Source: Alphaproteobacteria bacterium UBA7314 (GTDB lineage Bacteria > Pseudomonadota > Alphaproteobacteria > MPNO01 > UBA830). From it: a stretch of 64,000 bases of DNA. The stretch's first letter is position 1; each line of letters opens with the position of its first letter. The notes beneath the pieces are model-generated. The model had not been told where the DNA came from, searched no databases, and saw only the letters and a program-made list of their open reading frames with translations. This document shows positions 44,611 to 63,470 of this stretch, one piece after another. Where the stretch lies: contig DKQG01000046.1 in the NCBI GenBank assembly GCA_002471575.1, forward strand, positions 20,043 through 84,042, in the 5' to 3' direction. The position numbers and the translations under genes are program-made.

Positions 44611-44659
44611 AAAATCAGAATAGCTGGCAGATTGCCACAGTGACGGGAAGTCTGCCCCA

Positions 44660-45826: not shown

Positions 45827-46920
45827 TGATGGCCGCAGTAGACAATTATAAGAAATCCCGCCCACCGCCCGCCGCATCCGCGGGGGTGATAGGCTGGTGT
45901 CGCCAAAACCTGTTTTCCAGCTTTTCAAACACGATTTTAACCCTCGTTTCCTTTTACCTCCTCGCTTTGGCAATCCCGGCATTTTTGGATTGGGCGTTCT
46001 TCAGCTCTCAAATCTCGGGGAACACGAGGTTTGATTGCAAGGTGGAGGGTGCGTGCTGGGCTTGGGTAGATCAACGGTTTGGACAATTTCTCTTCGGCTT
46101 CTATCCAGAGGGCGAAAGATGGAGGGTTATACTCGCGTTTGTCCTCTTATTCCCCGCGCTCATACCGTGGGTAACCCAAGATTTACCCGGTCAGAGATAC
46201 CTGCGGTGGTTCTCTGTTGCTTATCCCGCTATTGCCACGATTCTATTGGCTGGGGGCCTTGGCCTCCGGGAGGTTCCAACCGACAAATTCGGTGGTTTTA
46301 TGCTGAATTTGATTGTGGGGCTGTCCGGAATTGTCCTGTCCCTTCCGGTGGGAATTCTTTTGGCGCTGGGCAGGCAATCGAAATTACCTCTGATAAGATG
46401 GTTATCAATCGGCTTTATCGAGGCTATCCGCGGCGTGCCTTTGATAACGCTTTTATTTGTCTCAAATATCCTTTTACCCATTTTTCTGCCACCGGATATG
46501 ACGCTGGATTCGATTATTCGTGTGATCATAATGGTTACGGCTTTTGCGTCCGCATATATGGCCGAGGTAATTCGAGGTGGACTTCAGGCGATACCCTCAG
46601 GGCAAATCGAAGCCGCCCACGCGATGGGTCTCAACTATTGGAAATCTATGCGGCTGATTGTACTTCCTCAGGCCCTCAGAATATCAATACCTGGCATCGT
46701 CAACACATTTATTGGGCTATTTAAAGACACGACGCTGGTGATCGTTATTGGCCTATTTGATATCCTAGGGATTGCCAACGCAATGGTCTCCAATCCAGAT
46801 TGGCTTGGTTTATCAACAGAGACCTACGTCTTTGTCGCCGTCTTCTTCTTTGCGGTTTGTTTTTCTATGTCACGGTATTCAATGTGGCTCGAGCGTCGCC
46901 TCGGCAAACAACGTCATTAG
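45826..46920 (+). CDS. aapM: General L-amino acid ABC transporter permease (AapM/BztC-like)
   Basis: 364 aa. The block [11 protein letters not shown]... and an EAA loop ([24 protein letters not shown]) are present. The start overlaps the aapQ stop. Confidence 0.85.
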
Positions 46921-46931
46921 GAGGCTATTTT

Positions 46932-47702
46932 TTGGACAACAGTAAATTAAACAACTCAGACAATCATTTGCGGGTTATAGAGATTGAGGGGCTCAACAAA
47001 TGGTTCGGTTCCTTTCATGTTTTGCGGGATGTATCACTATCTGTCGAACAAGGTGAAAAAATAGTCATTTGTGGCCCCTCCGGAAGCGGTAAATCCACCT
47101 TAATCCGCTGCATTAATTTTCTGGAGGAGCATCAGGAAGGGCAGATTGTTGTTGATGGAATTGAATTAACTGGAGATTTAAAAAATATTGATGCGGTCCG
47201 GCGAGAGGTTGGAATGGTTTTCCAATCGTTCAATTTGTTTCCTCATTTATCAGTGCTCGAGAATTGCACTCTCGCGCCAATCTGGGTTCGAAAGACGCCG
47301 CAGGCGGAAGCAGAAAAACTCGCGATGGAATATCTCGATAGGGTAAAAATACCGGAGCAGGCTCACAAATATCCTGGTCAACTATCCGGCGGCCAGCAGC
47401 AGAGGGTTGCGATTGCGCGTTCGCTATGCATGAAGCCCAAAATAATGCTGTTTGATGAGCCGACATCCGCCCTTGACCCAGAGATGATCAAGGAAGTGCT
47501 GGACGTTATGGTCGATCTGGCAGACTCCGGCATGACCATGCTTGTCGTCACTCATGAAATGGGCTTCGCTTCACAGGTAGCTGATCAAATTATCTTTATG
47601 GATGAGGGTCAAATTGTTGAGCAGAACACACCCAGTGAATTTTTCGATAACCCACAGTCGGACCGAACCAAACTTTTTCTGAGCCAAATCCTCAGCCACT
47701 AA
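46932..47702 (+). CDS. aapP: General L-amino acid ABC transporter ATP-binding protein (AapP/BztD-like)
   Basis: A TTG start lies 7 nt after AGGAGG and gives MDNSKLNN. Walker [10 protein letters not shown], signature LSGGQQQR and Walker [12 protein letters not shown] are present. The track ORF from 46800 overlaps aapM. Confidence 0.9.
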
Positions 47703-47881: not shown

Positions 47882-49600
47882 TTAGCTATTTCCGCAGACC
47901 ACGTTAACCAACGCCTGACGCTTTTCCCCCGTGACAACGTTCAACGCCTTATCCAGCGTCGACATCAGATCATCTGGTTCTGTGACACGAAAGCCAGCGC
48001 CTCCGGACACCTCAACCGCTTTCTCGTAGTGCTGATCGACCGTGAAGTGCGTCAACGGCTGACGATTGGCCTTCGACGCATACCCATCCGGTTCCAGGCC
48101 CACCGTTGAACGATGAACCGCTTGCCATTGCTGATTATTGAACACGACCCACAGTATGGGAAGGTTCTGCTCCGCAGCAACGTAATGGCAGGAAACCGGC
48201 ACATTGAACATGTAGGCGCCGTCCCCCTCCGTGCCGATCACCAGCTTGTCCGGCGCAGCAAGTTGCGCGCCAAGTGCTACGCCCATGCCATGGCCAAGCC
48301 CTGAGGCAGCGCCTGCATTCAGCATTTTCCCTGGTTTCTCGGTATCGATATATTGCTGCATTAACGGGGATTCACGGACCATGATGGTGTCTGGGTCCCT
48401 GATCTGGTTCAAGCAATAGGATATAAAGGCAGGGCTGATCGGCGATTGCGATTTCTCCGCATCCAGCTTCGATCGCCAGGCGTCTTCCAGTTCCTGATGT
48501 GCCGCCACCGCCTTGTCACGACGTTTTGTGATCTTGGCCGCCGCGGCTTTTTCGTGCTCTGCCATTGCCGGAATCAATGCACGAAATCCAATATCCGCCG
48601 GACATGTCAGCGATATATCAGCGGGAAACCCGCGCACAGGCACCATCGTGTACATGGGATCGGTCGCTATATGGATCACCTTGCAGTCATCCGGCGGAGT
48701 TACCTGCGATGGCAACCAGGGCACGACCGTATCGAAGACGACGATGACATCGGCATCTGCAACATAGGGATTCGGGTTGTAGCCAGCATGCATCGGATGA
48801 CGGGGCGAGATCGAAGTAAAACGGTTCCGGTACTCGACCACCGGGATCGCATACCTATCGGCCAGTTCGGTCAGGGGAGCCATAACGCCAGGGTTTCGCC
48901 CACCCCAGTTCGTGATCATCACCGGGCGTTCCGAATTGGCCAGCAGATCCGCCACCTCATCAATCATATTTGGGTCAGGCCAAGGCGGCGATGCCGGCTG
49001 AACCCGGTTCGGCGAATCGAAACTGAACTCCTCCATCTTTTTTGACAGCACCTCACGCGGCAAGGACAAGTATATTGGACCTTTTGGTTCGCTCATCGAT
49101 ACCGATAGCGCCCGATCGACTATTGCCGCTACCTGCTCTCCATTGCGTAGTTCGTAATCCCACTTGACCGCTTCGCGGGTCATCGCCGCCTGGTCGTACA
49201 TTTCCTGCGTCCAATGGATGTCGAGGCTACGGTGGCCTTTAAGCGTGTCTTCGTTAGTCGGCGTGCGCCCCGCCGTGAACAGCATCGGCACATATCCTCG
49301 TGCGGCATTCAGCAACCCGTTCAGCCCATTTGCGGTGCCTACATTGACGTGCATCATCGTCATCTGAGGCCGGCCTGATACGAGGTAATGACCGATCGCC
49401 ATGTGCTGAGCCGTATTTTCATGAGGACAAGTGATCGGTTCCGGGATCGGTGTTCCCAGTGCCTGCGCCTTCGCCAGAGATTCGATTAGAGGAGCGAAAT
49501 CCGTGCCCGCATTCGCAAACAGATAATCTACGCCCCGGTCCGCCAGAACGGCGAGATAGGCGTCGGCGACCGTACAGTTTTTCAATGTTTTCTTTGGCAC
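47882..49600 (-). CDS. Thiamine-diphosphate-dependent enzyme (572 aa)
   Basis: A PYR domain (PHENTAQHMAIGHY...VNVGTANG) and the TPP motif GDGAYMFNVP...NNQQW are present. Confidence 0.9.
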   Translation of the reverse strand: MPKKTLKNCTVADAYLAVLADRGVDYLFANAGTDFAPLIESLAKAQALGTPIPEPITCPHENTAQHMAIGHYLVSGRPQMTMMHVNVGTANGLNGLLNAARGYVPMLFTAGRTPTNEDTLKGHRSLDIHWTQEMYDQAAMTREAVKWDYELRNGEQVAAIVDRALSVSMSEPKGPIYLSLPREVLSKKMEEFSFDSPNRVQPASPPWPDPNMIDEVADLLANSERPVMITNWGGRNPGVMAPLTELADRYAIPVVEYRNRFTSISPRHPMHAGYNPNPYVADADVIVVFDTVVPWLPSQVTPPDDCKVIHIATDPMYTMVPVRGFPADISLTCPADIGFRALIPAMAEHEKAAAAKITKRRDKAVAAHQELEDAWRSKLDAEKSQSPISPAFISYCLNQIRDPDTIMVRESPLMQQYIDTEKPGKMLNAGAASGLGHGMGVALGAQLAAPDKLVIGTEGDGAYMFNVPVSCHYVAAEQNLPILWVVFNNQQWQAVHRSTVGLEPDGYASKANRQPLTHFTVDQHYEKAVEVSGGAGFRVTEPDDLMSTLDKALNVVTGEKRQALVNVVCGNS

Positions 49601-49949: not shown

Positions 49950-51161
49950 ATGCGAAACGTACAGCAGAGATTTAAAATGCATGTTCCTGTTGCAATCATC
50001 GGCGCCGGCCCATCGGGCTCGCTCCTCGCGTGGATGCTCAGGCGGAAAGGCATCGAAAGCATTGTCATAGAGGCCCGGAGCCGGGAATACGTCGAGGGCC
50101 GCATCCGTGCAGGCGTTCTGGAGCAAGGGACCGTGGACACCCTGATCGCCGCGGGCGTGGGCGACCGACTCAAAAAAGAATCTTTACATCACCGCGGTGT
50201 GTGTATCGGGTTCAAAAACGAACACTACATTCTCGATTTTGACAAGCTGATCGGCCGAGGCGTTACCGTCTACGGACAGCAGGAAATTACGAAGGACCTC
50301 CTTTCTGCTCTCGACCGCGAAAATCACAATGTACTTTATGAAGCGCCTGCCACGATGGTCGAAGATTTGGAGTCAGAGACCCCAACTTTACGTTACACGT
50401 ACGAGGGTAAAGAGTGCGAACTCACCGCGGACTTCATCATCGGGTGCGACGGTTTTCGTGGCGTCTCCCGTCAATCAATTCCCGCGTCGGTTCTTAAGAC
50501 ACATGATCTCGTCTATCCCTTCGGCTGGCTCGGTATTCTTGCAAATGTGAAACCTTCGAAGGAAGTCGCGCTGTTCTCCCATAATGACCGCGGTTTTGCG
50601 TTACTGAGCATGCGGTCAGAATCAGTCGGGCGTCTGTACCTACAATGCCGAAACGATGAAAATCTGGACGAATGGCGGGACGACCGGATTTGGGACGAAC
50701 TCGATGCACGTCTTGGAGCGCCCGGATGGACGTTGGAGCGCGGAGAGATTACGCAGAAAGACGTCACACCATTACGCAGCTTCTTCTCGGAACCGATGCA
50801 GCATGGACGCCTTTTCCTGGCCGGGGACGCAGCGCATATCGTCCCGCCCACAGGTGCAAAGGGTTTGAATTCCGCGGTCGCGGATATCAATGTTCTCGCG
50901 GCCGCTTTGATCAACCGCATTCAGAACGACGACGAGACGTTGCTACGCGACTACTCCGATATTGCGCTCAGCCGGAACTGGCAGGTACAGCGTTTTTCAT
51001 GGTCGAATACGGCCATGTATCACATTTTTCCAGAAAGCAATTCGTTCACGCGGCGCATGCAGGACGCGCAGCTCGAATATCTCGTGAGTGACGAGACAGC
51101 TCAAATCCTGTACGCGCAGAACCACACGGGTCTGCCCTTTGCCCACAAGCCGGAGTTCTAG
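49950..51161 (+). CDS. pobA: 4-hydroxybenzoate 3-monooxygenase
   Basis: Blocks VAIIGAGPSG, GRIRAGVLEQGTVD, VTVYGQQEITKDL, IGCDGFRGVSRQSIP, YPFGWLGIL, PMQHGRLFLAGDAAHIVPPTGAKGLN and RFSWSNT match Pseudomonas PobA closely (from memory). The ATG at 49977 (MHVPVAI) is an alternative start. Confidence 0.9.
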   Translation: MRNVQQRFKMHVPVAIIGAGPSGSLLAWMLRRKGIESIVIEARSREYVEGRIRAGVLEQGTVDTLIAAGVGDRLKKESLHHRGVCIGFKNEHYILDFDKLIGRGVTVYGQQEITKDLLSALDRENHNVLYEAPATMVEDLESETPTLRYTYEGKECELTADFIIGCDGFRGVSRQSIPASVLKTHDLVYPFGWLGILANVKPSKEVALFSHNDRGFALLSMRSESVGRLYLQCRNDENLDEWRDDRIWDELDARLGAPGWTLERGEITQKDVTPLRSFFSEPMQHGRLFLAGDAAHIVPPTGAKGLNSAVADINVLAAALINRIQNDDETLLRDYSDIALSRNWQVQRFSWSNTAMYHIFPESNSFTRRMQDAQLEYLVSDETAQILYAQNHTGLPFAHKPEF

Positions 51162-51179
51162 TCCGCCTTCGGGGGACTA
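51159..51179. terminator. Short hairpin spanning both convergent stop codons (pobA TAG and ubiD-1 TAG)
   Basis: In TAGTCCGCCTTCGGGGGACTA the two ends pair, giving 8 bp with one G-G mismatch. There is no U-run, so its terminator function is doubtful. Confidence 0.25.
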
Positions 51180-52823
51180 CTCTTCTTCGTCTTTCAGGGT
51201 TCGAACTTCGGTGTTCATGGTCAGGTCGTTCCGGCGGCGCTGGGCGATGATCTCGCCGGTTTTGAAGTAGTCGCTTTCGACCGCGCGCTGCGCCATTACG
51301 TCAAATTCCTCTTCCCATTCGCCCAGCGAGTAGCCGTGCCAAGGTACCTGCGGTTTGAGCTCCGGCAGGCCGAGCTCGTCCCAGATTGCCTTAGCATTCA
51401 CCATATATTCCTTTTTCGGCAGCGAAATCGGCGGAAAATCCTCTTTCAGAGTCGCATCGAACAGGACCGACGCGTCTTCGCCGCCGGCACGGTCGCTGCG
51501 CGGCCCGTGACCGGGGTCCCGATGCTTCAGGATCTCGACGTCGAGCGCCGGATTGGCACGGTAGGCCATGGCCCAGAACACAGCGTCCGCATTGTCGGGA
51601 TCTATATCGTCGTTCACAGCGATGACGTATTTGCCCGCTGCACGATGCAGCGACGCCGCCCCGTACATGGCACGCCAGATTTCCGTTGTCGGCATACCGC
51701 GTTCACAGATGATGACGATCAGTTTCCGGATATTGGTCAGTGGCTCGTGCATCGAAACCCTGATGACACCCTTGATGCCCAGGTGATCGCGCAGATGCTC
51801 GGTGAACATGGGCTCGTAGGCGACGCGCTTGATGACAGAAGACTCCGACGGCGTCACCTGGCTGATAATCGACGTCAGGATTGCGTCACGCTTCCGCGTG
51901 ATGCAGGTGACATCCATGTAGGCATTGTATTCTTGCAGGTTCACATGACCATGGGACTCTCCGAACGGGGCTTCGGGCTCTAGATATTCCGTATCTATGT
52001 ATCCTTCGATCACGATCTCGGCCTCGGCCGGGACCATCAGGTCGACCGTCTTTGCCTTAACGATGTTAATCGGCGAACCGGCTAGCGCGCCCGCGACGCG
52101 AAACTCGTCGAGATCCTCCGTCAGCTTGATGGCCGACGTGAATGTCACAGAGGGTGGCGCACCGAGAACGACGGCGGCGGGCATTTTCTCGCCGCGCTTC
52201 TTGTATTTCTCCCAGTGGATGTAAATCCCAGGACGCAGTTCCAGCGACGGGTTCATGCCCATCCGCTTCTGGCCTTTGATCTGACCGCGGTAGTTACCCA
52301 TGTTCTGGATGCCGCTGTCCGGATCTTTTGTGATGTACTGCGACAACGTCGTATAGGGCGCGTTGTCCCAACCGGGTGTCGAGATGGGTACGGGCACGCC
52401 GTCTAACCCCTGCCCCGCGATATCGAGGTCCTCACCCTGCCATACGATTTCCTGGCACGGCGCTTCGGTGACTTCTACCGGATCGATCGGGTTGCCCGTT
52501 GCCCGTTTCCAGGTTTCCTCGATTTCGTCTAGCTCGCAGCCGATGCCAGTGCGATAGATATCGCGGCTCGCCGCCAGCACGCCGACCGCGACAGGTATAT
52601 CGAACTTGCGCCCCTTTGAATCCACGACGTTGGTGAACAAAAAGGCTTTGCGATCCTTTTCTTCGAGGCCGCCGCGAAATTGCCAGCGTACCAGCGGATG
52701 CAGTTCGGTATCCTTGTTGATCTCACGGTTCACCCGCACCAGCAACCCGCGTCGATCCAGTTCTTCCAGATGATCGTGCAGGTCGGGATAATCACGTTTC
52801 GGTGCTTTGTCTTTCGTTGCCAT
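51177..52823 (-). CDS. UbiD family (prFMN-dependent) decarboxylase, paralog 1, with C-terminal tail
   Basis: 548 aa. Blocks INKDTELHPLVRWQFRGG, GIQNMGNYRG, EAPFGESHGHVN and IDPDNADAVFWAM are UbiD-family motifs. About 60 aa follow the usual end (..IWDELGLP). Confidence 0.9.
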   Translation of the reverse strand: MATKDKAPKRDYPDLHDHLEELDRRGLLVRVNREINKDTELHPLVRWQFRGGLEEKDRKAFLFTNVVDSKGRKFDIPVAVGVLAASRDIYRTGIGCELDEIEETWKRATGNPIDPVEVTEAPCQEIVWQGEDLDIAGQGLDGVPVPISTPGWDNAPYTTLSQYITKDPDSGIQNMGNYRGQIKGQKRMGMNPSLELRPGIYIHWEKYKKRGEKMPAAVVLGAPPSVTFTSAIKLTEDLDEFRVAGALAGSPINIVKAKTVDLMVPAEAEIVIEGYIDTEYLEPEAPFGESHGHVNLQEYNAYMDVTCITRKRDAILTSIISQVTPSESSVIKRVAYEPMFTEHLRDHLGIKGVIRVSMHEPLTNIRKLIVIICERGMPTTEIWRAMYGAASLHRAAGKYVIAVNDDIDPDNADAVFWAMAYRANPALDVEILKHRDPGHGPRSDRAGGEDASVLFDATLKEDFPPISLPKKEYMVNAKAIWDELGLPELKPQVPWHGYSLGEWEEEFDVMAQRAVESDYFKTGEIIAQRRRNDLTMNTEVRTLKDEEE

Positions 52824-52880
52824 ATTCTGCGTCCCAGTATGGATGTTTTGAGTCTTGAAGCCGGTTCTTCGCAGAGGGCG

Positions 52881-53639
52881 TCACCACATCGCCGACCCAC
52901 CGTCAACAACAAGCGTCTGGCCGGTGATGAAATCGCTCTCCCCGGAAGCGAGAAATACGCAGGCGCCAACCAGATCTTCAGGCTCTTCGTGTCGCTTGAT
53001 TGCCCGGGTCTGCATCGTTGCGTCGGCGTTCCCGCCCTTCCAGTTCGTCCTCGCCACCACGTTCTCGCTCATGGTCGAGCCAGGGGCAATGGCATTGACG
53101 CAGATATTGTCGTCACCGACCTCGCGGGCGAGGGAGCGCGTAATGCCAATCACTGCCGCTTTCGACGCGTCGTAATGCAGAAAAAAGGGTGTGCCCTTGA
53201 AAACGCGGCCGGTGGAAATCGAGATAATCTTGCCGTATCCGTTTTTGCGCATTTCCGGAACGGCGGCGCAGCAGCCAAGCCAGACGCCTCGCACGTTCAC
53301 TCCCATAACCGCGTCCCATTCATCAACCGGTATATCGTCGAAATTCTTGCGTTCCACTGCGGTAAAAATTGCCGCGTTATTCACCAGAATATCCAGCCGA
53401 CCAAACGACTCGATCGCTTTCGAGACCATGTTTTCACAGCCATCCTTTGTCGAAACGTCCGTTGGGACATCAACGGCTACCCCGCCGGCCGACCGGATTT
53501 CCTCGACAACGGACGCGCCGGTGTCGAGATCCGCGATCACCAGCCGGGAGCCTTCAAAGGCAAGCGCCTTTGCAAATGCCGCGCCTATGCCCTGGGCTGC
53601 GCCTGTGACGATGGCGACCCGTCCATCCAGTTTTCCCAT
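52881..53639 (-). CDS. Short-chain dehydrogenase/reductase (SDR) family oxidoreductase
   Basis: The NAD(P)-binding TGAAQGIG, NNAA and the catalytic YDASK are present. Confidence 0.9.
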   Translation of the reverse strand: MGKLDGRVAIVTGAAQGIGAAFAKALAFEGSRLVIADLDTGASVVEEIRSAGGVAVDVPTDVSTKDGCENMVSKAIESFGRLDILVNNAAIFTAVERKNFDDIPVDEWDAVMGVNVRGVWLGCCAAVPEMRKNGYGKIISISTGRVFKGTPFFLHYDASKAAVIGITRSLAREVGDDNICVNAIAPGSTMSENVVARTNWKGGNADATMQTRAIKRHEEPEDLVGACVFLASGESDFITGQTLVVDGGSAMW

Positions 53640-53670
53640 TGCTTATCCTCCGCGCCGAAGGTCCGGCCCG

Positions 53671-55404
53671 CTATTTATCCTTGTCTTTCACCTGGGACGC
53701 GTCTTCGAGCTTGTCCCACGTCAGGTTTTCGTCGACATCGTCGCCCGCCCCCGGATTGCCCATGTCGAGTGTCCGGATTTCGGTGTTGATAGGCACATCG
53801 CCGCGGCGGCGCTGGGCAATGATCTGACCGGTCGTCCAGTATTCGCTTTTAACGGCTCGGCGCGCCATCGCCTCCAGTCCCGTGTTCCATTCGCCCATGT
53901 CGTAGCCGAACCATGGCGCTTTCGGTTTCAGCTTCGGCAGGCCCAGCTCTTCCCAAATTTCCTTGGCCTTTTCCATGAACTCGCGCTTGGGCAGCGACAC
54001 CGGCGGGAAAGTTTCCTTTAGCGTCGCATCGATCAGCACTGCACTGTCCTCGGAATCGAGCAGGCTTCGCGGACCGTGACCCTCGTGTTTATGTTTCAGG
54101 ATCTCGACATCGTTGTGCGGTTTGCAGCGATACGACATAGCCCAGAACACTGCATCGGTATCGTCCGGGTCTATATCTTCGTTCACGCAGATGATCCACT
54201 TGCCCTCGGCCTGCCGCAACGACGCAACTCCGTACATTGCACGCCAGATCTCGGTACGCGGAACACCCCGCTCCACCACGACGATGATCAGTTTGTGCAG
54301 TGACGTCAGAGGTTCGTGGGTCGAGACGTGCTTGATGCCCTTTATGCCGAGATGGTCACGCAGATGCTCGATCTGCCGGGCTTCGTAGGCCGGTCGTTTG
54401 ATCGTTCCGGATTCCGAGGGCGTCACCTGACTGACCCAAGACGTCATGATCGATTTTTTGCGCCGGGTAATCGCCGTGATGTCTATATACGCGTTGTATT
54501 CCTGCAGGTTCACATGGCCGTGGGACTCACCGAACGGCGCCTCCGGTTCGAGCAATTCGGTAGACACGAACCCCTCGATCACGATTTCCGATTCGGCAGG
54601 GACGATCAGATCGACCGTCTTACACCTAGTCACGTTGAGCGGCGCGCCTGCAAGACCACCCGAAACCGCTAGTTCATCCAGTTTTTCCGGCACTTTCTGC
54701 ACCGCCGTAAATGACACCACGGGTGGCGCGCCAATTACGACGGCAACCGGCATCGGCTTGCCGAGTTTCTTCCATTCTAGCCAGTGCATGTAACCGCCCG
54801 TGCGAAGTTCGGTCGAAGGGTTCATGCCAAGCCGCGTAGGCGCCTTCACCATACCGCGATAATTGCCCATGTTCTGGATACCGGTGTGCGGGTCCTTGGT
54901 GATGAAATGTGACGACGAAAAATATGGGGCATTGTCCCATCCCGGAGAAGAAATCGGCACCGGTATCGCATCGAGACCGTTGCCGTTCAGCAGGTCTTCG
55001 CCCTCGAACACCAGGTCGTGACAGGGCGCATCGCCGTCCGGGACCATATTCGGCTCCAGCGGGTTGTTGATGGCGTTGATCCAGGTGTTTTTGAGGTCTT
55101 TCAGATCGCAACGCATGCCGAGCTGATAGATTTTCTGATTACCTGCAAGACCACAGACCAGAACCGGAATATCGTATTTTCGGCCCTTCGAGTCGGTAAT
55201 GTTCGTGAATAGAAACGCTTTGCGGTCCTCTTCATCAATGCCGCCGCGGAACTGCCAGCGCACCAGCGGGTGCATCTCCGTATCCTTGTTGATCTCGCGG
55301 TCTATTTCGATCAGCAGGCCTTTTGCTCGCAACTCCTCGATATGTTCATGTAGATCGGTGTATCCCCGCTCATCGACCGTCATATATCCCGTCGTAGTTG
55401 CCAT
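53671..55404 (-). CDS. UbiD family decarboxylase, paralog 2, with C-terminal tail
   Basis: 577 aa. It has the same motif set (INKDTEMHPLVRWQFRGG, GIQNMGNYRG, EAPFGESHGHVN) and the longest tail, ending in an acidic/lysine-rich stretch. Confidence 0.9.
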   Translation of the reverse strand: MATTTGYMTVDERGYTDLHEHIEELRAKGLLIEIDREINKDTEMHPLVRWQFRGGIDEEDRKAFLFTNITDSKGRKYDIPVLVCGLAGNQKIYQLGMRCDLKDLKNTWINAINNPLEPNMVPDGDAPCHDLVFEGEDLLNGNGLDAIPVPISSPGWDNAPYFSSSHFITKDPHTGIQNMGNYRGMVKAPTRLGMNPSTELRTGGYMHWLEWKKLGKPMPVAVVIGAPPVVSFTAVQKVPEKLDELAVSGGLAGAPLNVTRCKTVDLIVPAESEIVIEGFVSTELLEPEAPFGESHGHVNLQEYNAYIDITAITRRKKSIMTSWVSQVTPSESGTIKRPAYEARQIEHLRDHLGIKGIKHVSTHEPLTSLHKLIIVVVERGVPRTEIWRAMYGVASLRQAEGKWIICVNEDIDPDDTDAVFWAMSYRCKPHNDVEILKHKHEGHGPRSLLDSEDSAVLIDATLKETFPPVSLPKREFMEKAKEIWEELGLPKLKPKAPWFGYDMGEWNTGLEAMARRAVKSEYWTTGQIIAQRRRGDVPINTEIRTLDMGNPGAGDDVDENLTWDKLEDASQVKDKDK

Positions 55405-55437
55405 ATCCCTACTCTCCCGTCGGTTTTCTCTACGATC

Positions 55438-57111
55438 TTAGGTCTGGTCTTCATCCCAGCCCGGTACGGACCGGACATGGGTATTCGGTTTAACGCCGGC
55501 GCGGCGGCGTTGGGCGCTGCGCTTGCCGTTTTCAAGATACTCGCCCTGCGCCGCGCGCTCGGCCAGGGCATCCCACTCGTCGCTCCAGTCACCGAGCGAG
55601 TAACCGTGCCATGGGCTTTCCGGATTGAGTGCCGGTAAACCGAGATCATCCCACAGCTCTCTTGCGCGCTCCATATATTCGCGTTTAGGCAAGGCCAGAG
55701 GCGGCATTTCACGTTTCAGGGTCGCATCGATCAACAGCGTGGAGTCTTCGGGCCGCGCACCATCCTTGTCTTTGGGTCCGTGACCGGCATCCCGATGACG
55801 GAGGATTTCGACATCCTTGTCCGGATCGGCACGATAGCCAAGTGACCAGAATACAGCATCACCATTATCAGGATCGATGTCCTCGTTCACCGCAATCACG
55901 TATTTTCCGCAATCTGCCCGCAGGCTGGTCGCCCCGTATAGTGCGCGCCATACTTCTGTCCGTGGAGTACCCGGCTCCATCTGTAGAAATATCACCCGAC
56001 GGATGTTGGTCAGCGGTTCATGCAGAAAGACCCGTTTCACGCCCTTTATCCCAAGCTGATCCTGCAGATGAGCGAGGAACATAGGTTCGTACGCAACGCG
56101 TTTGATCACCGAAGATTCCGACGGTGTCACCTGGCTGATAATCGACGAAAGGACGGCATCGGTTTTCCGCGTGATCGCAGACACCTCGAAGATCATGTTG
56201 AAATCCTCGAGCGAAATATGCCCGTGAGACTCCCCAAATGGGGCTTCCGGTTCGAGGCACTCCGTATCGACAAAGCCTTCGATGATGATTTCCGAGTCCG
56301 CAGGCACCATCAGGTCGGATGTCCGACACTTCACGATAGGGATCGGCGCTCCGGCAAGCGCCCCCGCAATCGTTAGTTCGTCGACGTCGCGCCGGATTTT
56401 CTGAGGTCCGGTATATGCAACGGCCGGCGGGGACCCAAGGACAACTACGCATGGCATCTTTTCGCCGCGCTTCTTGTATTTCTCCCAGTGAAGGTAGCCG
56501 CCGGCACCGCCTTCGCGCGCCGACATACGGACGGCCATGCGGTTCGATGCCTTTAGCCCGGCTCGGTAGGTGCCCATGTTCTGGATACCCGTGTCCGGAT
56601 CGGCGGTAATGAACAGCCCGGCCGTCAGGTACGGCGCGCTGTCGAAACCCGGGGTTGAAATGGGCACAGGCAGCGCGTCCAGTCCGTTTCCTTCACCTAC
56701 CAGATCCTTACCAGTCATCACGACTTCTTGACAGGGCGCATTCGACACCGTCACCGGATCGACCGGGTTGTTTACCGCATTCGCCCAGTGCGGACCGATT
56801 TCATCCAACGGCACGCCGATGCCGGTGCGATAAACTTCCCGGTTTGCGGCAAGGGCGCCGACCACTACGGGCATATCGTATTTCCGCCCCCGGCTATCAT
56901 GAACATTCGTAAACAGAAAGGCCTTACGCCCTGCGTCAGGTATGCCGCCACGATACTGCCAGCGCACCAGGGGATGGAGCTCAGTATCCTTGTTGACTGG
57001 TTTTTCGATGCGAAGCAGAAGCCCGGCTTCGTCGAGCGCTGAAAGATGCTCCTGCAGATCGCGATAACACGCAACGTCGGTCTTACTGGGTGATGTCGCG
57101 CGGGTCACCAT
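55438..57111 (-). CDS. UbiD family decarboxylase, paralog 3, with C-terminal tail
   Basis: The start is taken at MVTRATSP (57111). Motifs VNKDTELHPLVRWQYRGG, GIQNMGTYRA and EAPFGESHGHIS are present. Confidence 0.9.
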   Translation of the reverse strand: MVTRATSPSKTDVACYRDLQEHLSALDEAGLLLRIEKPVNKDTELHPLVRWQYRGGIPDAGRKAFLFTNVHDSRGRKYDMPVVVGALAANREVYRTGIGVPLDEIGPHWANAVNNPVDPVTVSNAPCQEVVMTGKDLVGEGNGLDALPVPISTPGFDSAPYLTAGLFITADPDTGIQNMGTYRAGLKASNRMAVRMSAREGGAGGYLHWEKYKKRGEKMPCVVVLGSPPAVAYTGPQKIRRDVDELTIAGALAGAPIPIVKCRTSDLMVPADSEIIIEGFVDTECLEPEAPFGESHGHISLEDFNMIFEVSAITRKTDAVLSSIISQVTPSESSVIKRVAYEPMFLAHLQDQLGIKGVKRVFLHEPLTNIRRVIFLQMEPGTPRTEVWRALYGATSLRADCGKYVIAVNEDIDPDNGDAVFWSLGYRADPDKDVEILRHRDAGHGPKDKDGARPEDSTLLIDATLKREMPPLALPKREYMERARELWDDLGLPALNPESPWHGYSLGDWSDEWDALAERAAQGEYLENGKRSAQRRRAGVKPNTHVRSVPGWDEDQT

Positions 57112-57224: not shown

Positions 57225-57812
57225 TTATTTGTTAATACCGGCTGACAGAAGTAGGTGATACTCGTGGGCGCGGTCAATCCGTTCCTCCAGCGGTAATCCG
57301 CCATTGCGCAGGAACTCGCCGGTCATGATCGCCTGATAAACCTGCCCGCGCACCCGCGCTTCTTCTCGCGAAAAACCGATTTCTTCCAGCCGCTGCATCA
57401 AAAATGCCAGTCGCTGTGCATCCCGCTCGTCGATGCGGCGCGCTATCTCCGGGTCCTTGTGCGACAAAAGTCGCAGGGATACCGTTTGCCCGCGTGTCGT
57501 CCGGCGGATGACGCTTTCGAAAAGTGCCCAAATCCGCTCCTCCGCATTCCCGTCTCCGTCAATATCCGGCGACATCTGATCGTCCCAGATCGAAAACCAG
57601 AGATCGAGCAACACATCCAGCAACTCCTGGCGGTCGCGAAAGTGCCAGTAAAAGCTTCCCTTAGTCACGCCCAGGCGCCTTGCGAGGGGTTCCACCCTGA
57701 CGCCGTCCAGCCCGGCGTCGCCCAGCATTTCCCATGCACCAGTGATCCAGTCTTCCCGAGTCAGACAGTCATTTGTCCGCCCTACTGAGGTTGTTTCAGT
57801 GGTTTCCGCCAT
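57225..57812 (-). CDS. TetR family transcriptional regulator
   Basis: The start is taken at MAETTETT (57812). The HTH block LDGVRVEPLARRLGVTKGSFYWHFRDRQELL is present. Confidence 0.85.
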   Translation of the reverse strand: MAETTETTSVGRTNDCLTREDWITGAWEMLGDAGLDGVRVEPLARRLGVTKGSFYWHFRDRQELLDVLLDLWFSIWDDQMSPDIDGDGNAEERIWALFESVIRRTTRGQTVSLRLLSHKDPEIARRIDERDAQRLAFLMQRLEEIGFSREEARVRGQVYQAIMTGEFLRNGGLPLEERIDRAHEYHLLLSAGINK

Positions 57813-57971: not shown

Positions 57972-59003
57972 ATGTCCAAGCGTACCAAACTCACTTTTTC
58001 AATATTGCCCGCAGTCGCGGTGCTCGGGCTCACCGCACCGGCTGTCGCCGACGGCCACGGAAAAGTGGCCGACTTCTACAAAGGAAAAACGGTTACTGTT
58101 ATGGTCCCGTCGGGCCTTGGTGCCACACTGGGTCTGTATGGCCGGTTGACCACCGAGCACCTAGGCAAACACATTCCGGGTAACCCAAACGTCATTATCC
58201 AGTCGCGTCCAGGTGGCGGCGGAACGAAGGGCGCAGCCTATGCCTATAATGCCGCGCCGAAGGACGGCACGTATATCGCGGAAGCGCTGGCACCGTCGGT
58301 TCTGGCTCCGCTGCTCCGGACGATGAAGTTCGATGCGTCCAAATTCCAGTGGCTGGGATCGATCGCGCCGCGCCCGGCAGTTATATCTGTCTGGCACAAG
58401 GCGCCGGTAAGCGATCTCGCCTCAGCCAGGCAACGCGAAGCGATCATGGGCTCGACCGGTCTCGGTTCCGAAACCTATCTTGCCCCCACCCTCCTGAACC
58501 ATATCGCCGGAACAAAATTCAAAATTGTCAAAGGCTACAAGGGTGGTGCAAAGATCAACAAGGCGATGGAAGGCGGCGAAGTCCACGGCCGGATGAATTA
58601 CTGGTCGGGCTGGACCGCAGGCAAACCCGCATGGGTAAGCGGCGGTAAGCTTCGCCATATCGTCAGCTACGGCGGCCAGATCCCGGCGCTGCCGAACCTG
58701 CCAAAAATGGGCGATCTCGCTAAAACGGCGGAACAGAAAGCCATGGTGAAATTCCTCGAAGTCGCGCCGCGGATCGGCATGGGCTTCTGGGTTCACCCAG
58801 AAGTTCCGAAGGCGCGCGTCGCGGCGCTGCGGCAGGCTTTCATGTCGATGCTGAATTCGCCGGAATTCCGGGCCGACGCTAAGAAACGCAAAGCGCCGGT
58901 CAACCCGGTACCGGGTAAAGAGCTCGACAAGCTGGTGGCGGAAGCCTACGCAACCCCGCCCGCGACAATCGCCAAACTGAAAAAGGTATTTGGCTTCAAG
59001 TAA
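57972..59003 (+). CDS. tctC: Tripartite tricarboxylate transporter (TTT) substrate-binding protein (TctC/Bug superfamily, divergent subgroup)
   Basis: It has a signal peptide (..LGLTAPAVADG). Blocks GKTVTVMVPSGLGATLGLYGR, IPGNPNVIIQSRPGGGG and AAPKDGT fit the family as I remember it. It lies next to a tctA gene. Confidence 0.75.
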   Translation: MSKRTKLTFSILPAVAVLGLTAPAVADGHGKVADFYKGKTVTVMVPSGLGATLGLYGRLTTEHLGKHIPGNPNVIIQSRPGGGGTKGAAYAYNAAPKDGTYIAEALAPSVLAPLLRTMKFDASKFQWLGSIAPRPAVISVWHKAPVSDLASARQREAIMGSTGLGSETYLAPTLLNHIAGTKFKIVKGYKGGAKINKAMEGGEVHGRMNYWSGWTAGKPAWVSGGKLRHIVSYGGQIPALPNLPKMGDLAKTAEQKAMVKFLEVAPRIGMGFWVHPEVPKARVAALRQAFMSMLNSPEFRADAKKRKAPVNPVPGKELDKLVAEAYATPPATIAKLKKVFGFK

Positions 59004-59079: not shown

Positions 59080-61215
59080 CTAGAACATGTTTGCCCATGG
59101 GACGGACCGCAGATGCGGGAATAGGTCCCCAACCAATGCCTGCGGCCACGGTATGACGAGAAGTTTGTGGAAAAGAAAATACGAAAGAAGCCATATAGAC
59201 GTTGCAACAGCCAGCGTCGTACCCCAGCCTTCCTTTCCTTCGAACCGCATATACCCAACAAGGAACACGAACATTGCGGGCAGCAATCCGATCACCGCAG
59301 ATGCGCCGAAGAAGAAGAGCAGCCAGGCAAAATAAGTTATAACCCGCTTGGTAACTTCTGCCCCTGGCAGATCGCCGTAGTCGGCACTGATGTCAAAGTG
59401 GACGTCACTTTGCGCCGGAGCGCCGCCCTCGCCGCGGCCAGGCACACCCTCCTCGTCCACAGGAGCAGCTTCGCCCGGTGCGATGAACAATGCCGATAGG
59501 ATCAACCAGCCGATAAATATCATCGCCGCGACGGAAACCACCTGCGGGATAAGACGTGCGCCGAACTCCCACGTGGACGCGATACCGAATGCGGCCGCAA
59601 ACAACGCAAACAAAATAATCGCGAAGTAGAAATCGGGATTTAGCGCATCCCTCTGAAACCCAAATCTGCTGGCCGCCTGGGTCGTTTTCGCACGCGCGCG
59701 GTAGCCCCGGATTATAGGCGCTAGAACACCGTAAAGGGTGACCGCAAAAATAATCGGAACGTAAGGCGCGAAGACGACATTTCCGTCTCCGAAGTCACGC
59801 CAGATCCATAACCAGTCGGCACCGTACCGTTCCGTCGAGATAAACATGTAGCGTTCGACCAGACCACCAAGCACGAAGCCAAGGATCAGTGGCGGCCGCG
59901 GCCAGCGCAGACGTTTCATGATCCAGCCGATCAGACCGAAGATCAGCAGTGCATAGATATCGCCCCACTGGCGCGATCCCTGAAACGCGCCGACATAGGT
60001 TACGGCCAGAACAACCGGCGCAAGTATTCCGATCCGGATCAACGCAACCTTGGCCAGCTGGTTAGCGAACGTGAAGCAAATGCCGGCGCCGAGAATGTTG
60101 GCAATCGCCACCGACCACACCAGAGTGTAGGTCACATCCAGGTTCTTGGTCAGCATTTCCGGCCCCGGGACCAGCCCGTGGATCAGAAACGCGCCCAGGA
60201 TAAGCGCCATCGACGCCGAACCAGGCACGCCGAACGCAATGGTGGGCACCAGAGCGCCGCCTTCCTTCGCGTTGTTGGAGGATTCCGAGGCGATGACCCC
60301 GCGAACATCGCCCTTACCGAACGTCTCGGCAGCGCCCTTTTCGGAACGCGCCGCATGTCCATAGGCAATCCAGTCGATGACGGACGCCCCGATTCCCGGT
60401 ACAGCGCCGAGCGACGAGCCGATAGATGAGCATCTTATGACTAGAAACCAGTTTCTGAGCGTGTCCTTAATGCCGTCAATCTGTCCGAACCGCGCGTCCT
60501 GTTTTTCACCCGCTTTGACGTTGATCGATTGCTTGGTAATCGCCATGTCCGCGAGTTCTGGAATGGCGAAAAGGCCAAGTGCCAGTGGCACAACTGGCAG
60601 TCCATCCCACAGGTAAAGGGAATCGAACGTCCATCGAAGCGTCCCTGTCTGGGGATCGTCACCTGCGGTCGCCACCATAAGACCGATACACGCACCCGCG
60701 AGCCCTTTCAGCGGCGATCCGCCCGACAGAACCGCGACCAGCGACAGACCGAATACGCAAATCGCGAGCAATTCCGGTGACCCTATCTGCAGCACGATCG
60801 GCCGCAAAACAGGGACACTGACGCCAAGCAGTAACGCACCGAACAAACCGCCGATAACCGACGCCGAAAAAGCGGCACCGAAGGCCCGCCCCGCTTCACC
60901 CTTTCGCGCCATGGGATAGCCGTCCAGAATCGTTGCCGCCGACCCAACGGTCCCAGGCACCCCGAACAGGACTGCTGGTATCGTATCGGAGGTCACCACC
61001 ACGGCCTGAAGACCCATCATGAACGCCAGAGCTGTGAACGGATCCATGTTGAACGTAAACGGCAACAACAGCGACAAGCCCACAAGACCACCGAGACCGG
61101 GGATCACGCCGAGGACGAGACCTATCAAAACACCGAAGGAGAGAAATCCGAGCCTTTCTAGGCTCGCCATGTTCTGGAACGCCTCAATGGCGCTACCCAG
61201 CATATCAACTTCCAT
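59080..61215 (-). CDS. tctA: TTT large permease TctA fused to a C-terminal TctB-like four-helix domain
   Basis: 711 aa. Residues 1 to about 510 carry TctA blocks (GVIPGLGG, VLFGVPG, DGYPMARKGEAGRA, GAVPGIGASV). Residues from about 515 to 711 add four more hydrophobic helices and a TctB-like end. Confidence 0.85.
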   Translation of the reverse strand: MEVDMLGSAIEAFQNMASLERLGFLSFGVLIGLVLGVIPGLGGLVGLSLLLPFTFNMDPFTALAFMMGLQAVVVTSDTIPAVLFGVPGTVGSAATILDGYPMARKGEAGRAFGAAFSASVIGGLFGALLLGVSVPVLRPIVLQIGSPELLAICVFGLSLVAVLSGGSPLKGLAGACIGLMVATAGDDPQTGTLRWTFDSLYLWDGLPVVPLALGLFAIPELADMAITKQSINVKAGEKQDARFGQIDGIKDTLRNWFLVIRCSSIGSSLGAVPGIGASVIDWIAYGHAARSEKGAAETFGKGDVRGVIASESSNNAKEGGALVPTIAFGVPGSASMALILGAFLIHGLVPGPEMLTKNLDVTYTLVWSVAIANILGAGICFTFANQLAKVALIRIGILAPVVLAVTYVGAFQGSRQWGDIYALLIFGLIGWIMKRLRWPRPPLILGFVLGGLVERYMFISTERYGADWLWIWRDFGDGNVVFAPYVPIIFAVTLYGVLAPIIRGYRARAKTTQAASRFGFQRDALNPDFYFAIILFALFAAAFGIASTWEFGARLIPQVVSVAAMIFIGWLILSALFIAPGEAAPVDEEGVPGRGEGGAPAQSDVHFDISADYGDLPGAEVTKRVITYFAWLLFFFGASAVIGLLPAMFVFLVGYMRFEGKEGWGTTLAVATSIWLLSYFLFHKLLVIPWPQALVGDLFPHLRSVPWANMF

Positions 61216-61339: not shown

Positions 61340-62578
61340 TTATTCAGCCGCCACCGCTTCGTAACCCGGGTGACGCTCGCTGACATCGATCTTGAAAATC
61401 TTCTGCGCCGTCCGCCCAAGAATATTCCTTTTCGCATCTTCGTCGATGAAGGGCAGGTCCCAGACGACGGACGGGATATCCATATCCCAGTGCGGATAAT
61501 CTGATGACCACAAGAGTTGGGTTTCCGCATTCATCGCCCGGAACGTGGTCTCCAGCAGTTGGATATCGTCGGGCATCTCCATCGGCTGCGTTGTGTAATA
61601 CATGTCACGCATATAGTCGCTCGGTAGCTTCCTGAGAAGCGGGCACTCGGAAGAACGCATACGGTACTGCGTATCCAGCCGCTGCATGAGGAATGGAATC
61701 CACGAGATACCGGATTCGATCCACACAACTGGCAGATCGGGAAAACGCTCGTTCATCCCGTTCAAAACCCAGTTGGTGCAGTGAACGACATTGTACCAGG
61801 TAAAGCCCAACGCATGGACCGCGAGGAACCGGTTGCAGGTGCGGAACATTGGATCATCCCAGTTGAACCCGGAATGAAAGCCGATGGGCAACCCGCGTTC
61901 CTCGATGGCGCGGTAAATCTTCATATAGTCGTTATGATGGACGGGCCGGTGCCGAACCGACGTTACCATGAACCCAATCACGCCTGCGGCATCGCCGAAA
62001 TCCTCGACGATTTTCAGCGCCGCGTCGGGGTTGTTGAAAGGCAGATACAACATGGATTTCATTCGCGGGCTGCCGGGCAGAATTTTTTCGACAAGCCAGC
62101 GGTTGTAAGCGCGCGCGAGCGTGACCTCGACATCGGGTTGCGGATGCATGGCCAGACCGAGCATCGGGGTTGGAAACACGCAGGCGTAGTCGACGCCCAT
62201 CGCGTCCATCCAGCGGTGACTAAGATGCACGTCGCGGTGCGTGCCGTCGTCCGGCGTTTCCTCCAGACCGCGGAGTGGGTAGCGGGTGACGCGGCCGCCG
62301 ATATCCTGATAGCCCACGCGCCCCAGCGAAAACATAGACCCACGATGGGCAATCTGTTGGGCTGACCGCGCGAGTTGGCGCAGCACCGGATCCTCGATGA
62401 ATTCGACGATTTCCTTCATCGACTCCGTTTCGTAATGATGCGCATCGACATCGATGATCAGCATATCGTTGAATTTGCGCTGGTCTCGCTGGCGTGCCGC
62501 ATTCTGCATAAGCTTTTCGGTGTCGAATTCCTCGACGCTCATGCGGAAATAGCGCTCGTTCCCTGTGGGGAGTTCCAT
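61340..62578 (-). CDS. Amidohydrolase_2 family protein, copy C (diverged paralog of 34340..36824)
   Basis: 412 aa. Blocks IIDVDAHHYETE, HALGFT and WSSDYPHWDMD are present, and it has the same N-terminal EEFDTEKLMQNAARQRDQR extension as copies A and B. Confidence 0.85.
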   Translation of the reverse strand: MELPTGNERYFRMSVEEFDTEKLMQNAARQRDQRKFNDMLIIDVDAHHYETESMKEIVEFIEDPVLRQLARSAQQIAHRGSMFSLGRVGYQDIGGRVTRYPLRGLEETPDDGTHRDVHLSHRWMDAMGVDYACVFPTPMLGLAMHPQPDVEVTLARAYNRWLVEKILPGSPRMKSMLYLPFNNPDAALKIVEDFGDAAGVIGFMVTSVRHRPVHHNDYMKIYRAIEERGLPIGFHSGFNWDDPMFRTCNRFLAVHALGFTWYNVVHCTNWVLNGMNERFPDLPVVWIESGISWIPFLMQRLDTQYRMRSSECPLLRKLPSDYMRDMYYTTQPMEMPDDIQLLETTFRAMNAETQLLWSSDYPHWDMDIPSVVWDLPFIDEDAKRNILGRTAQKIFKIDVSERHPGYEAVAAE

Positions 62579-62705
62579 CGCCCCCGTCTCCCGAATCTAT
62601 ACTCAACCCTGTTATTGTAGCGTGAAACACGCGCGCCGCGAAAGGATTGGATTTCGCACGCGGCTGCCCCATAAAGGTCCTAACAGACATCTCTGGGAGC
62701 GCCCA

Positions 62706-63470
62706 ATGACCGACAAGCCCTTCACCCGCATCGGTACCCCGACATCTGATACCGACCGTTTCCGCATGCGCGGCCGGGACGTGCTGAGCGAAATTCTCGG
62801 TGAGAAGAGCTTTACAGAGACCTTCTACCTGCTGGTGACCGGCAATGAGCTGCCTGAGAACTATGCTCGAACATTCGATGCCTGCATGGTCATCCTGATG
62901 GATCACGGCATCACGCCGACCGCGCTTGTCGCGCGCATGGTTCACGATTCTCTGCCGGACGACGTCCAGTTGCCGATGATCGCGGGCTCGATGATGGTCG
63001 GCAACAAGTTCGCCGGCACGATGGCTGGGGCCGGGGCGATCTTCAAGGAAGGTGTCGAGGCTGGCGGAGATCCCCGCGATTTCGCGCAAAACGTCATTGC
63101 CCGACACAAGGAACAGAAGAAATTCATCCCCGGTTACGGTCACCCTTATTACTTCCCTACCGACCCGCGCTCCGACAGGATATTCCAGATCGCACATCAA
63201 GGCAGCGTCGGCGGTAAATACATCGAGCTTGCGAAAATTTTGGCGGAAGAAATTGAGAAATCCCGGGGCAAACCGCTGACGCTTAACGTCACGGGCGCAT
63301 TGGGCGCCGTCCTCAACGAAGTGTCTTTCCCGGTCGAGGTCATGCGTGGGGTTGCCGCCGTCAGCCGTGCCGCGGGACTCATTGGCCACGTATACGAAGA
63401 GATGGAAAATCCGATCGCGCCGTCGGTGGTCGAGTTCATCAATAACATTGAATACCGCGATCCGGATTGA
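62706..63470 (+). CDS. Citrate synthase family short form (citryl-CoA lyase-like)
   Basis: 254 aa from MTDKPFTRI, preceded by GGGAG. Blocks LMDHGITPT, GYGHPYY, DPR and LNVTGALGAV correspond to the C-terminal catalytic part of citrate synthases (from memory). Confidence 0.8.
   Translation: MTDKPFTRIGTPTSDTDRFRMRGRDVLSEILGEKSFTETFYLLVTGNELPENYARTFDACMVILMDHGITPTALVARMVHDSLPDDVQLPMIAGSMMVGNKFAGTMAGAGAIFKEGVEAGGDPRDFAQNVIARHKEQKKFIPGYGHPYYFPTDPRSDRIFQIAHQGSVGGKYIELAKILAEEIEKSRGKPLTLNVTGALGAVLNEVSFPVEVMRGVAAVSRAAGLIGHVYEEMENPIAPSVVEFINNIEYRDPD

Follow-up and report, generated by a model that had tools for sequence, protein, structure and literature searches.

Three tandem, long-tailed UbiD-family genes in an alphaproteobacterial cluster: probable prenylated-flavin-dependent isoenzymes of a widespread, uncharacterised clade

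Why should a marine bacterium carry three UbiD-family decarboxylase genes side by side, each extended by the same unfamiliar C-terminal tail, with no ubiX gene in the surrounding DNA? The question is raised by a 64-kb stretch from Alphaproteobacteria bacterium UBA7314 (contig DKQG01000046.1; “the window” below is the whole of this stretch), in which positions 51177-57111 hold an array of three genes, here termed UbiD1, UbiD2 and UbiD3. The original prediction, made from the DNA letters, described three full-length, head-to-tail UbiD homologs with a short-chain dehydrogenase/reductase (SDR) gene between copies 1 and 2, and both the open reading frames (ORFs) and Pfam agree with that description. 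Probably, the three genes encode isoenzymes of a tail-bearing UbiD clade that depend on prenylated flavin mononucleotide (prFMN), and are co-transcribed with the SDR next to a likely uptake system.

All three proteins score above the gathering threshold for the Pfam families UbiD, the prFMN-binding domain, and UbiD_C; UbiD_N passes in copies 1 and 3 and reaches 22.5 bits, against a threshold of 24.3, in UbiD2. In pairs the copies are 61-63% identical, and the UbiD fold is supported by an AlphaFold2 (AF2) model of UbiD1 (mean predicted local distance difference test score, pLDDT, 76.9) together with Foldseek. The motifs that had been quoted as intact family hallmarks are present, including QNMGTYR and EAPFGE in UbiD3. 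In an alignment of 126 clade members, the window copies among them, six residues never vary (UbiD1 numbering: N174, R179, H203, E240, E284 and E289). From motif spacing and the Fdc1 numbering, we take N174/H203/E240/R179/E284/E289 to match N168/H191/E233/R173/E277/E282 of Aspergillus niger Fdc1, and thus presumably to be the Mn/K-phosphate ligands and the Glu-Arg-Glu triad. No copy has lost any of the six, a loss of prFMN- or metal-binding residues having been named beforehand as counting against the proposal. The ratio of nonsynonymous to synonymous substitution (dN/dS) against orthologs is 0.03-0.14 for UbiD1, 0.03-0.12 for UbiD2 and 0.04-0.14 for UbiD3, with synonymous sites saturated. It is clear that all three copies are under strong purifying selection and that none is decaying.

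The tail begins where the known enzyme ends. Alignment to E. coli UbiD stops at the IWDEL motif, residue 490 of 497, in agreement with the original prediction, and about 60 residues of the window proteins lie beyond it. The pattern there is common to all three copies and reads LGLPxLxPxxPWxGYsLGeW...A.rAv.gdY..tG..ia.rRR.dv.mnTevR at residues 484-541 of UbiD1. Across 127 clade members 10 of the 58 tail positions are invariant, the mean frequency of the major residue is 0.70 compared with 0.76-0.77 in the catalytic body, and conservation drops sharply past residue 541. In the AF2 model the tail follows the IWDEL helix as a loop and then two helices (505-515 and 519-527; pLDDT 70-90). Searched alone, as had been proposed for Pfam, it matched nothing in Pfam or among PDB sequences; a tail-only search of a 5.8-billion-protein set returned only 22 short UbiD-gene fragments and is uninformative on other proteins that might carry the tail. 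Full-length relatives at 36-45% identity, taken from a library of 50%-identity representatives, can still be aligned over the first half of the tail; for shorter UbiDs (33-37% identity) the alignment ends at about residue 490 and this part is lacking, and the AQRRR..NT.VR ending is limited to a narrower clade. The tail had been called novel; it is not peculiar to the trio and marks a huge clade, of which it is an extra structural element throughout. We infer that it extends the C-terminal oligomerisation helix and may pack on a neighbouring subunit or over the domain hinge. Two short ORFs comprise barely more than a UbiD tail and could be frameshifted genes or free-standing tail peptides: P0128, of 98 aa, comes from a contig of 103.8 kb, and P0141, of 100 aa, from one of 21 kb. 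Past the conserved tail, UbiD2 ends in a variable acidic stretch of about 30 residues, and in some Betaproteobacteria the UbiD1-type protein runs on for 40-60 residues rich in Lys, Ala and Pro (carriers in Table 1).

The first homology search gave at least 8,000 matches to the long-tailed clade across many phyla; the 120 matches listed span 74-97% identity and 507-621 aa. UbiD1 homologs at 70-97% identity occur across Alpha- and Betaproteobacteria, and the closest genomes are marine and freshwater alphaproteobacterial metagenome-assembled genomes (MAGs), UBA830 for example. The identical UbiD2 protein recurs in 51 indexed blocks of a public assembly collection; the six places listed there are ENA marine metagenome contigs, including contigs from Tara Oceans. 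The clade falls in no named UbiD subfamily, since its members score below every NCBIfam equivalog cut-off and are at most 28% identical to any solved structure. The equivalogs for UbiD, menaquinone decarboxylase, VdcC, BagN/FevL and phenylphosphate carboxylase alpha and beta were all missed widely, and we found no solved structure of a clade member. By Foldseek the nearest structures are HmfF and E. coli UbiD, at 25-28% identity; among the other solved proteins, phthaloyl-CoA decarboxylase, AroY, Fdc1, HudA, PhdA and indole-3-carboxylate decarboxylase lie farther away. The literature searched, which did not extend to subscription journals, showed no characterised clade member, no described long-tailed subgroup (the prior existence of which had been named as counting against novelty) and no marine UbiD pathway.

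A neighbour-joining tree resolves the copies into three orthologous lineages that are older than this genome. Of 160 loci that carry the clade, 119 are single-copy, 20 have two copies and 21 have three, and each of the UbiD1, UbiD2 and UbiD3 lineages is found alone in other genomes. Two of the three lineages, UbiD2-type and UbiD3-type, have usual neighbours of their own; those of the UbiD1-type vary. The UbiD1-type is the commonest and is usually single-copy elsewhere, in Betaproteobacteria often with a CoxLMS-like molybdenum hydroxylase, CoxG, an enoyl-CoA hydratase, a hydrolase and binding proteins. UbiD2-type genes adjoin an SDR gene in 5/6, 3/3, 2/3 and 8/20 loci across locus classes, the SDR being missing from the closest MAGs (L001-L008). 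Lone UbiD3-type genes, carried by Neorhizobium petrolearium, Sinorhizobium meliloti LMB1, Ca. Puniceispirillum, Cognatishimia and others, lie with TctC, fused TctAB, a relative of the thiamine diphosphate (TPP)-dependent enzyme TPP_a and UbiX in 6-7 of nine loci; such loci also hold two molybdenum-hydroxylase catalytic subunits, CoxG, an alpha/beta hydrolase, a GMC oxidoreductase and a GntR regulator. Gene order runs UbiD3-UbiD2-UbiD1 in some relatives and UbiD2-SDR-UbiD3-UbiD1 in others. Because the lineages stand alone elsewhere and the order varies, the window array reads as a set of juxtaposed modules that work independently in other genomes. Furthermore, since the lineages are old, each occurs alone and two have their own neighbours, homo-oligomeric isoenzymes are favoured over an obligate heteromer. 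Sixteen positions are fixed within lineages and differ between them, and they cluster at residues 190-200, the loop before the metal-binding His203; these changes are consistent with diverged substrate pockets, if the loop lies at the pocket as we infer.

Of the options that had been offered at the outset, isoenzymes therefore fit the evidence best. Each copy would most likely form its own homo-oligomer and decarboxylate an acid of its own, unsaturated, aromatic or heteroaromatic and chemically related to those of the other two; or the copies would act on successive intermediates of one pathway. The substrates would probably enter through the adjacent tripartite tricarboxylate transporter (TTT), rightly placed beside the array in the original prediction and represented by TctC and a fused TctAB, and perhaps also through a NitT/TauT-type ATP-binding cassette (ABC) transporter of the surrounding supercluster. 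The SDR and two TPP-dependent enzymes may process side chains before or after decarboxylation, and the prFMN would come from a UbiX whose gene lies elsewhere in the genome. As to the substrates, carboxylated N-heteroaromatic or aromatic acids are weakly hinted at because molybdenum hydroxylases, PucR, an adenine-deaminase-like amidohydrolase and NMT1/ThiY-like binding proteins lie near clade members in other genomes.

A special case of the isoenzyme reading is that the three enzymes act in series on one imported aromatic or N-heteroaromatic tricarboxylate, each removing one carboxyl group. The adjacent, conserved transporter of tricarboxylate type would suit this, as would three intact enzymes in one operon and the lineage-specific changes near the active-site loop; the molybdenum hydroxylases, PucR-type regulator, adenine-deaminase-like amidohydrolase and NMT1/ThiY-like proteins of relatives are likewise typical of N-heterocycle catabolism. 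We nevertheless regard it as rather unlikely, as the array resembles a fusion of modules that are independent elsewhere, the SDR has been lost from the closest MAGs, and copy number varies from one to three among relatives, so that parallel substrates fit at least equally well. Pfam scans of the window proteins found no molybdenum hydroxylase, and TTT receptors bind many mono- and dicarboxylates, which also counts against a dedicated tricarboxylate route. Doubtful in our view is an undescribed prFMN pathway of ocean Alphaproteobacteria in which the trio would strip a single TTT-imported polycarboxylate stepwise, possibly with a tail-mediated assembly channelling the intermediates.

Alternatively, the three paralogs could together form one hetero-oligomeric (de)carboxylase with the shared tail as an assembly element, by analogy with phenylphosphate carboxylase (PpcABCD) and the multi-UbiD anaerobic carboxylases, which likewise have UbiD paralogs side by side. 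In 21 loci the trio is adjacent and co-directional with very short gaps, the proteins are of similar length, all have the tail, and purifying selection is similarly strong on each; UbiD enzymes are dimers or hexamers in which the C-terminal region forms contacts. We consider such a heteromer improbable all the same. Its subunits would have to be proteins that occur singly in other genomes, two of them with usual partners of their own, and that change places in the gene order of relatives. The active site is complete in every copy; in paralog complexes some subunits are often degenerate. The analogy itself, which the original prediction had drawn, proved weak: 119 of the 160 loci are single-copy, the scores against phenylphosphate carboxylase alpha (TIGR02723) and beta (TIGR02724) are 70-102 bits where 565 and 469 are required, no gamma or delta genes occur in the block, and the context of PpcABCD is anaerobic whereas here it is aerobic. 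Membership of the VdcBCD/LpdBCD hydroxyarylic acid decarboxylases was rejected in the same manner (NF041204, 141-163 bits against 650; no gene for the UbiX-like B subunit, and gaps of 31-57 nt that are too small for a D subunit). Phthaloyl-CoA decarboxylase (Pcd) was rejected too: it matches with an E-value of only about 1e-20 (PDB 8pmk/8oz5), and a family III CoA-transferase gene past the window end was discarded as a Pcd-like partner, not being conserved near clade members.

The absence of UbiX had been noted at the start, and it holds: a tblastn probe able to detect UbiX in 16 other loci has no hit in the 64 kb, and no window protein scanned against Pfam matches PF02441. Comparison with relatives shows that this absence does not signal a new cofactor logic. 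UbiX is adjacent to clade members, or within 10 kb of them, in 14 of the 160 loci, in several phyla; these include seven cultured strains and a single-cell genome, and the genera Paraburkholderia, Neorhizobium, Sinorhizobium, Amycolatopsis, Cognatishimia, Inquilinus and Puniceispirillum. In a Rhodoferax MAG it lies immediately downstream of a UbiD3-type gene, and in three Paraburkholderia loci (two genomes, one plasmid) it is divergent from the UbiD gene. Because UbiX is linked to clade members in these 14 loci, the comparison supports a dependence of the clade on prFMN, as judged from gene neighbourhoods.

Several points weigh against the reading of three prFMN-dependent isoenzymes. The 23 closest marine and freshwater loci resemble the window in having no UbiX, here within 10 kb of the UbiD genes. 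Further, a housekeeping UbiX cannot simply be assumed, because another alphaproteobacterium, Rhodobacter capsulatus, grows normally in air without ubiD-ubiX (PMC10626278); a genome scan with a SAR116 UbiX query did not reach the MAGs of this lineage and is uninformative on ubiX there. The decarboxylase activity and prFMN use of the clade are predicted by homology only, and gene context in other genomes points weakly to the substrate class. In the trio lineage the three genes are always adjacent and co-directional, as a complex would also show, and the confidence of the AF2 model is only moderate in the C-terminal domain. A carboxylating direction or a non-decarboxylase role, such as a prFMN-independent function conferred by the tail, would draw on the missing UbiX of the marine lineage, on a tail with no known homolog in Pfam or PDB sequences and on the reversibility of UbiD reactions (PMC8379154), but it is very improbable given the aerobic, catabolic context (transporters, a PobA-like enzyme, oxygenases, methylcitrate genes), the invariant presumed ligands and catalytic triad, and the linkage of UbiX to the clade in many other genomes.

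Among characterised enzymes, the 2,5-furandicarboxylate decarboxylase HmfF (Pelotomaculum thermopropionicum, PDB 6h6v/6h6x; HmfFG in Cupriavidus basilensis) is the best match in sequence and fold among solved structures (E 3e-34; Foldseek E 9e-34). It offers a parallel in being a UbiD-family enzyme for a heteroaromatic dicarboxylate, encoded in a catabolic cluster with its UbiX (HmfG). HmfF is about 430-450 residues long, lacks the tail and is 27-28% identical to the window copies; orthology was rejected on this identity, the length and the absence of the hmfABCDE genes here. In the segment SQVTPSESS.IKR.AYE, which is invariant among the three window copies, Ser328 and Tyr336 align to H296 and R304 of HmfF, which we take to be its substrate-contact residues. 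An SDR gene (psfG) is present in many hmf clusters (PMC8091172). E. coli UbiD, a 4-hydroxy-3-polyprenylbenzoate decarboxylase (PDB 2idb, 5m1b-e), shares the three-domain fold and the metal and Glu-Arg-Glu residues, is about 26% identical and ends 7 residues past IWDEL. It acts in ubiquinone biosynthesis, whereas the window genes stand in a catabolic context, and assignment as UbiD in the strict sense was rejected (NF008175, 124-149 bits against a cut-off of 788).

Another comparison is with xanthine-8-carboxylate decarboxylase (XCDC) of the lumazine pathway in Cupriavidus sp. LA-1 (LA1_0150), a prFMN-dependent UbiD encoded in an N-heterocycle catabolic cluster with a molybdenum hydroxylase and UbiX (PMC12391406). 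Its gene context resembles that of many long-tailed UbiDs. It was rejected as a clade member on its syntenic ortholog, used in place of the LA-1 protein, which is 468 aa long, lacks the tail and shares 26% identity with UbiD1; of the XCDC cluster, the genes for the isomerase, GTPase and deaminase are missing from the window. A complete ortholog of the pterin/lumazine cluster was found on a Burkholderia sp. PAMC 26561 plasmid (locus L169, NZ_CP014309.1, 506663-525835), with a two-subunit IOR-like XOR, two amidohydrolases, UbiD, UbiX, a GTPase, a nucleobase symporter and a deaminase. Two Agrobacterium plasmid UbiDs were ruled out as XCDC, being UbiUVT-linked ubiquinone genes, as was a Paracoccus plasmid UbiD that belongs to a different, short UbiD-UbiX pair. 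The paper on the dipicolinate “dip” cluster does not mention UbiD (PMC11472048).

A “TIGR02444 family protein” lies beside UbiX in two unrelated UbiD-UbiX clusters, in Neorhizobium (L081, 17476-17973) and Paracoccus (L161, 15441-16007). In Amycolatopsis alkalitolerans (L127, NZ_VDFW01000011.1) a long-tailed UbiD (60% identical) stands with two distant UbiD paralogs and UbiX, and this multi-UbiD actinomycete cluster also has a PucR-type regulator, an adenine-deaminase-like amidohydrolase, a CoA ligase and an enoyl-CoA hydratase.

Substrates are known for no more than a few UbiD enzymes (PMC8988006). Those of the long-tailed clade would add new prFMN chemistry and would shed light on the breakdown of carboxylated aromatic or heteroaromatic compounds by abundant bacteria of the sea, fresh water and soil; the neighbour rules provide starting points in cultured Neorhizobium petrolearium, Sinorhizobium meliloti LMB1, Paraburkholderia caribensis and Cognatishimia. 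What is new is an uncharacterised clade with a structural addition seen in no solved structure. The fold, catalytic residues and cofactor logic are those of UbiD. The array is not a system of a new type, but for enzyme discovery it makes a good lead.

Table 1. Features of the UbiD array and its surroundings. Positions are those of the 64-kb window, except where loci are named.
Feature	Position	Strand	Length	Assignment and remarks
UbiD1	51177-52823	minus	548 aa	long-tailed UbiD-family; tail 51201-51374
SDR oxidoreductase	52881-53639	minus	252 aa	Pfam adh_short_C2, E 9e-58
UbiD2	53671-55404	minus	577 aa	long-tailed UbiD-family; tail 53773-53946
UbiD3	55438-57111	minus	557 aa from ATG	long-tailed UbiD-family; tail 55471-55644
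TetR-family regulator	57225-57812	minus		Pfam TetR_N, E 3e-11
TctC-type periplasmic solute receptor of TTT transporter	57972-59003	plus		Pfam TctC, E 8e-10
Fused TctA-TctB, TTT membrane component	59080-61215	minus	711 aa	Pfam TctA, E 2e-129, and TctB
Amidohydro_2-fold protein	61340-62578	minus	412 aa	Pfam PF04909, E 3e-23
Citrate-synthase-like gene	62706-63470	plus	254 aa	
PobA-like FAD monooxygenase	49950-51161	plus		NF006091 subfamily, 525 vs 351 bits
TPP_b, TPP-dependent enzyme, PRK08327 type	47882-49600	minus		NCBIfam NF006203, 648 vs cut-off 456 bits
TPP_a, second TPP-dependent enzyme	41112-42926	minus		Pfam TPP_enzyme_N/M/C
Carriers of Lys/Ala/Pro-rich extension, loci L061; L064; L069	9926-11749; 9893-11734; 9956-11698			UbiD1-type, Betaproteobacteria

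The UbiD genes run head-to-tail with the SDR between UbiD2 and UbiD1, and the gaps in the UbiD3-UbiD2-SDR-UbiD1 run are 33, 31 and 57 nt. No terminator-like site was found in any intergenic gap of the array, the promoter and terminator scans being in themselves uninformative. The TetR gene is the first of the co-directional block and is divergent from tctC over a 160-bp intergenic region; a search for a TetR operator palindrome found none. The regulator is kept upstream of UbiD3 in L001-L008 and is called as 195 aa on marine metagenome contigs, some from Tara Oceans, that carry the same gene set. TetR-UbiD3-UbiD2-SDR-UbiD1 is probably a single operon. The UbiD3 ORF extends past the ATG at 57111 to a TTG at 57192. 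The start is likely the ATG, because an RBS-like (ribosome-binding site) ggcggtg lies upstream of it and UbiD3 is also called as 557 aa on the marine metagenome contigs, Tara Oceans included, that hold the identical UbiD2.

The array belongs to a larger supercluster, which the original prediction had not recognised and which is conserved in the window and in 22 of the 23 closest loci (L001-L023). Its order is Amidohydro_2, TctAB, TctC, TetR, UbiD3, UbiD2, (SDR), UbiD1, then TPP_b, (FMN dehydrogenase), TPP_a, a NitT/TauT ABC transporter, a small Rieske protein and a 135-aa protein, and finally Amidohydro_2 proteins and a PrpD-like protein. In the window the block is broken twice, by the pobA-like gene and by an ABC transporter of amino-acid type at 43426-47702 on the plus strand (SBP_bac_3, two permeases and an ATPase), which lies between the genes for TPP_a and TPP_b; no counterpart of either interruption occurs in 80 related loci. 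The pobA-like gene, which the original prediction had counted as part of the context, is a lineage-specific insertion. It is convergent with UbiD1 and wedged between UbiD1 and TPP_b, it also occurs on marine metagenome contigs carrying the identical UbiD2, and its product falls below the TIGR02360 equivalog cut-off for 4-hydroxybenzoate 3-monooxygenase. The ABC transporter is probably an insertion too; the GC content is about 48% there compared with about 57% around it, and relatives such as L001 have an FMN-dependent dehydrogenase in its place.

The TctC gene keeps its position in L001-L023, and TctAB homologs at 46-52% identity accompany UbiD3-type genes in distant genomes. TPP_b follows directly downstream of UbiD1 in relatives, where the pobA-like gene intervenes in the window; its nearest solved proteins are oxalyl-CoA decarboxylase, benzaldehyde lyase and benzoylformate decarboxylase (E about 1e-25). 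Homologs of TPP_a at 41-44% identity adjoin TctAB and UbiD3-type genes in five loci (L081, L082, L139, L141 and L152). The SDR is below all NCBIfam equivalog cut-offs, and its best PDB matches are 8cxa and (S)-1-phenylethanol dehydrogenase (2ew8). The Amidohydro_2 protein listed in Table 1 may be of the decarboxylase type or of the amidohydrolase-related oxygenase (ARO) type; L001-L007 have at its position an Amidohydro_2 protein 61-62% identical to another from the window, AH2_b (35595-36824). A 456-aa ORF at 62220-63590 on the minus strand, without a family match, overlaps both this gene and the citrate-synthase-like gene and is spurious.

Rieske oxygenases had also been named as context. 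The Rieske protein near the UbiD cluster is a small NirD-like ferredoxin and not a ring-hydroxylating oxygenase; two true, tandem ring-hydroxylating alpha-subunit genes (439 and 490 aa) do occur at 125-2918, about 50 kb from the cluster, with no beta-subunit gene seen alongside. The NirD-like protein belongs to a set at 34340-37631 with two adjacent Amidohydro_2 proteins (408/409 aa) and a 135-aa protein without a family match, accompanied by an ABC transporter at 37615-41100. The set, whose best PDB match is 8sm7 (E 3e-41) and which is kept downstream of the UbiD block in relatives, looks like an amidohydrolase-related dinuclear oxygenase system (AibH1H2/SfbO type with a Rieske ferredoxin) and not like decarboxylases.

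Farther out, the methylcitrate genes prpC-prpB-prpD lie at 26316-30045. After them come the gene for a third TPP enzyme (30248-31930), a second member of the PEP-mutase/isocitrate-lyase family (31983-32891) and another PrpD-like gene, the second (32994-34316); these three are syntenic with the UbiD supercluster in L012. At 11199-12629 an arylmalonate-decarboxylase-like (Amdase) gene adjoins a gene of the carboxymuconolactone-decarboxylase (CMD) family. The window is thus unusually rich in decarboxylase-type enzymes, with three UbiD and three TPP-dependent proteins, the Amdase and the CMD.

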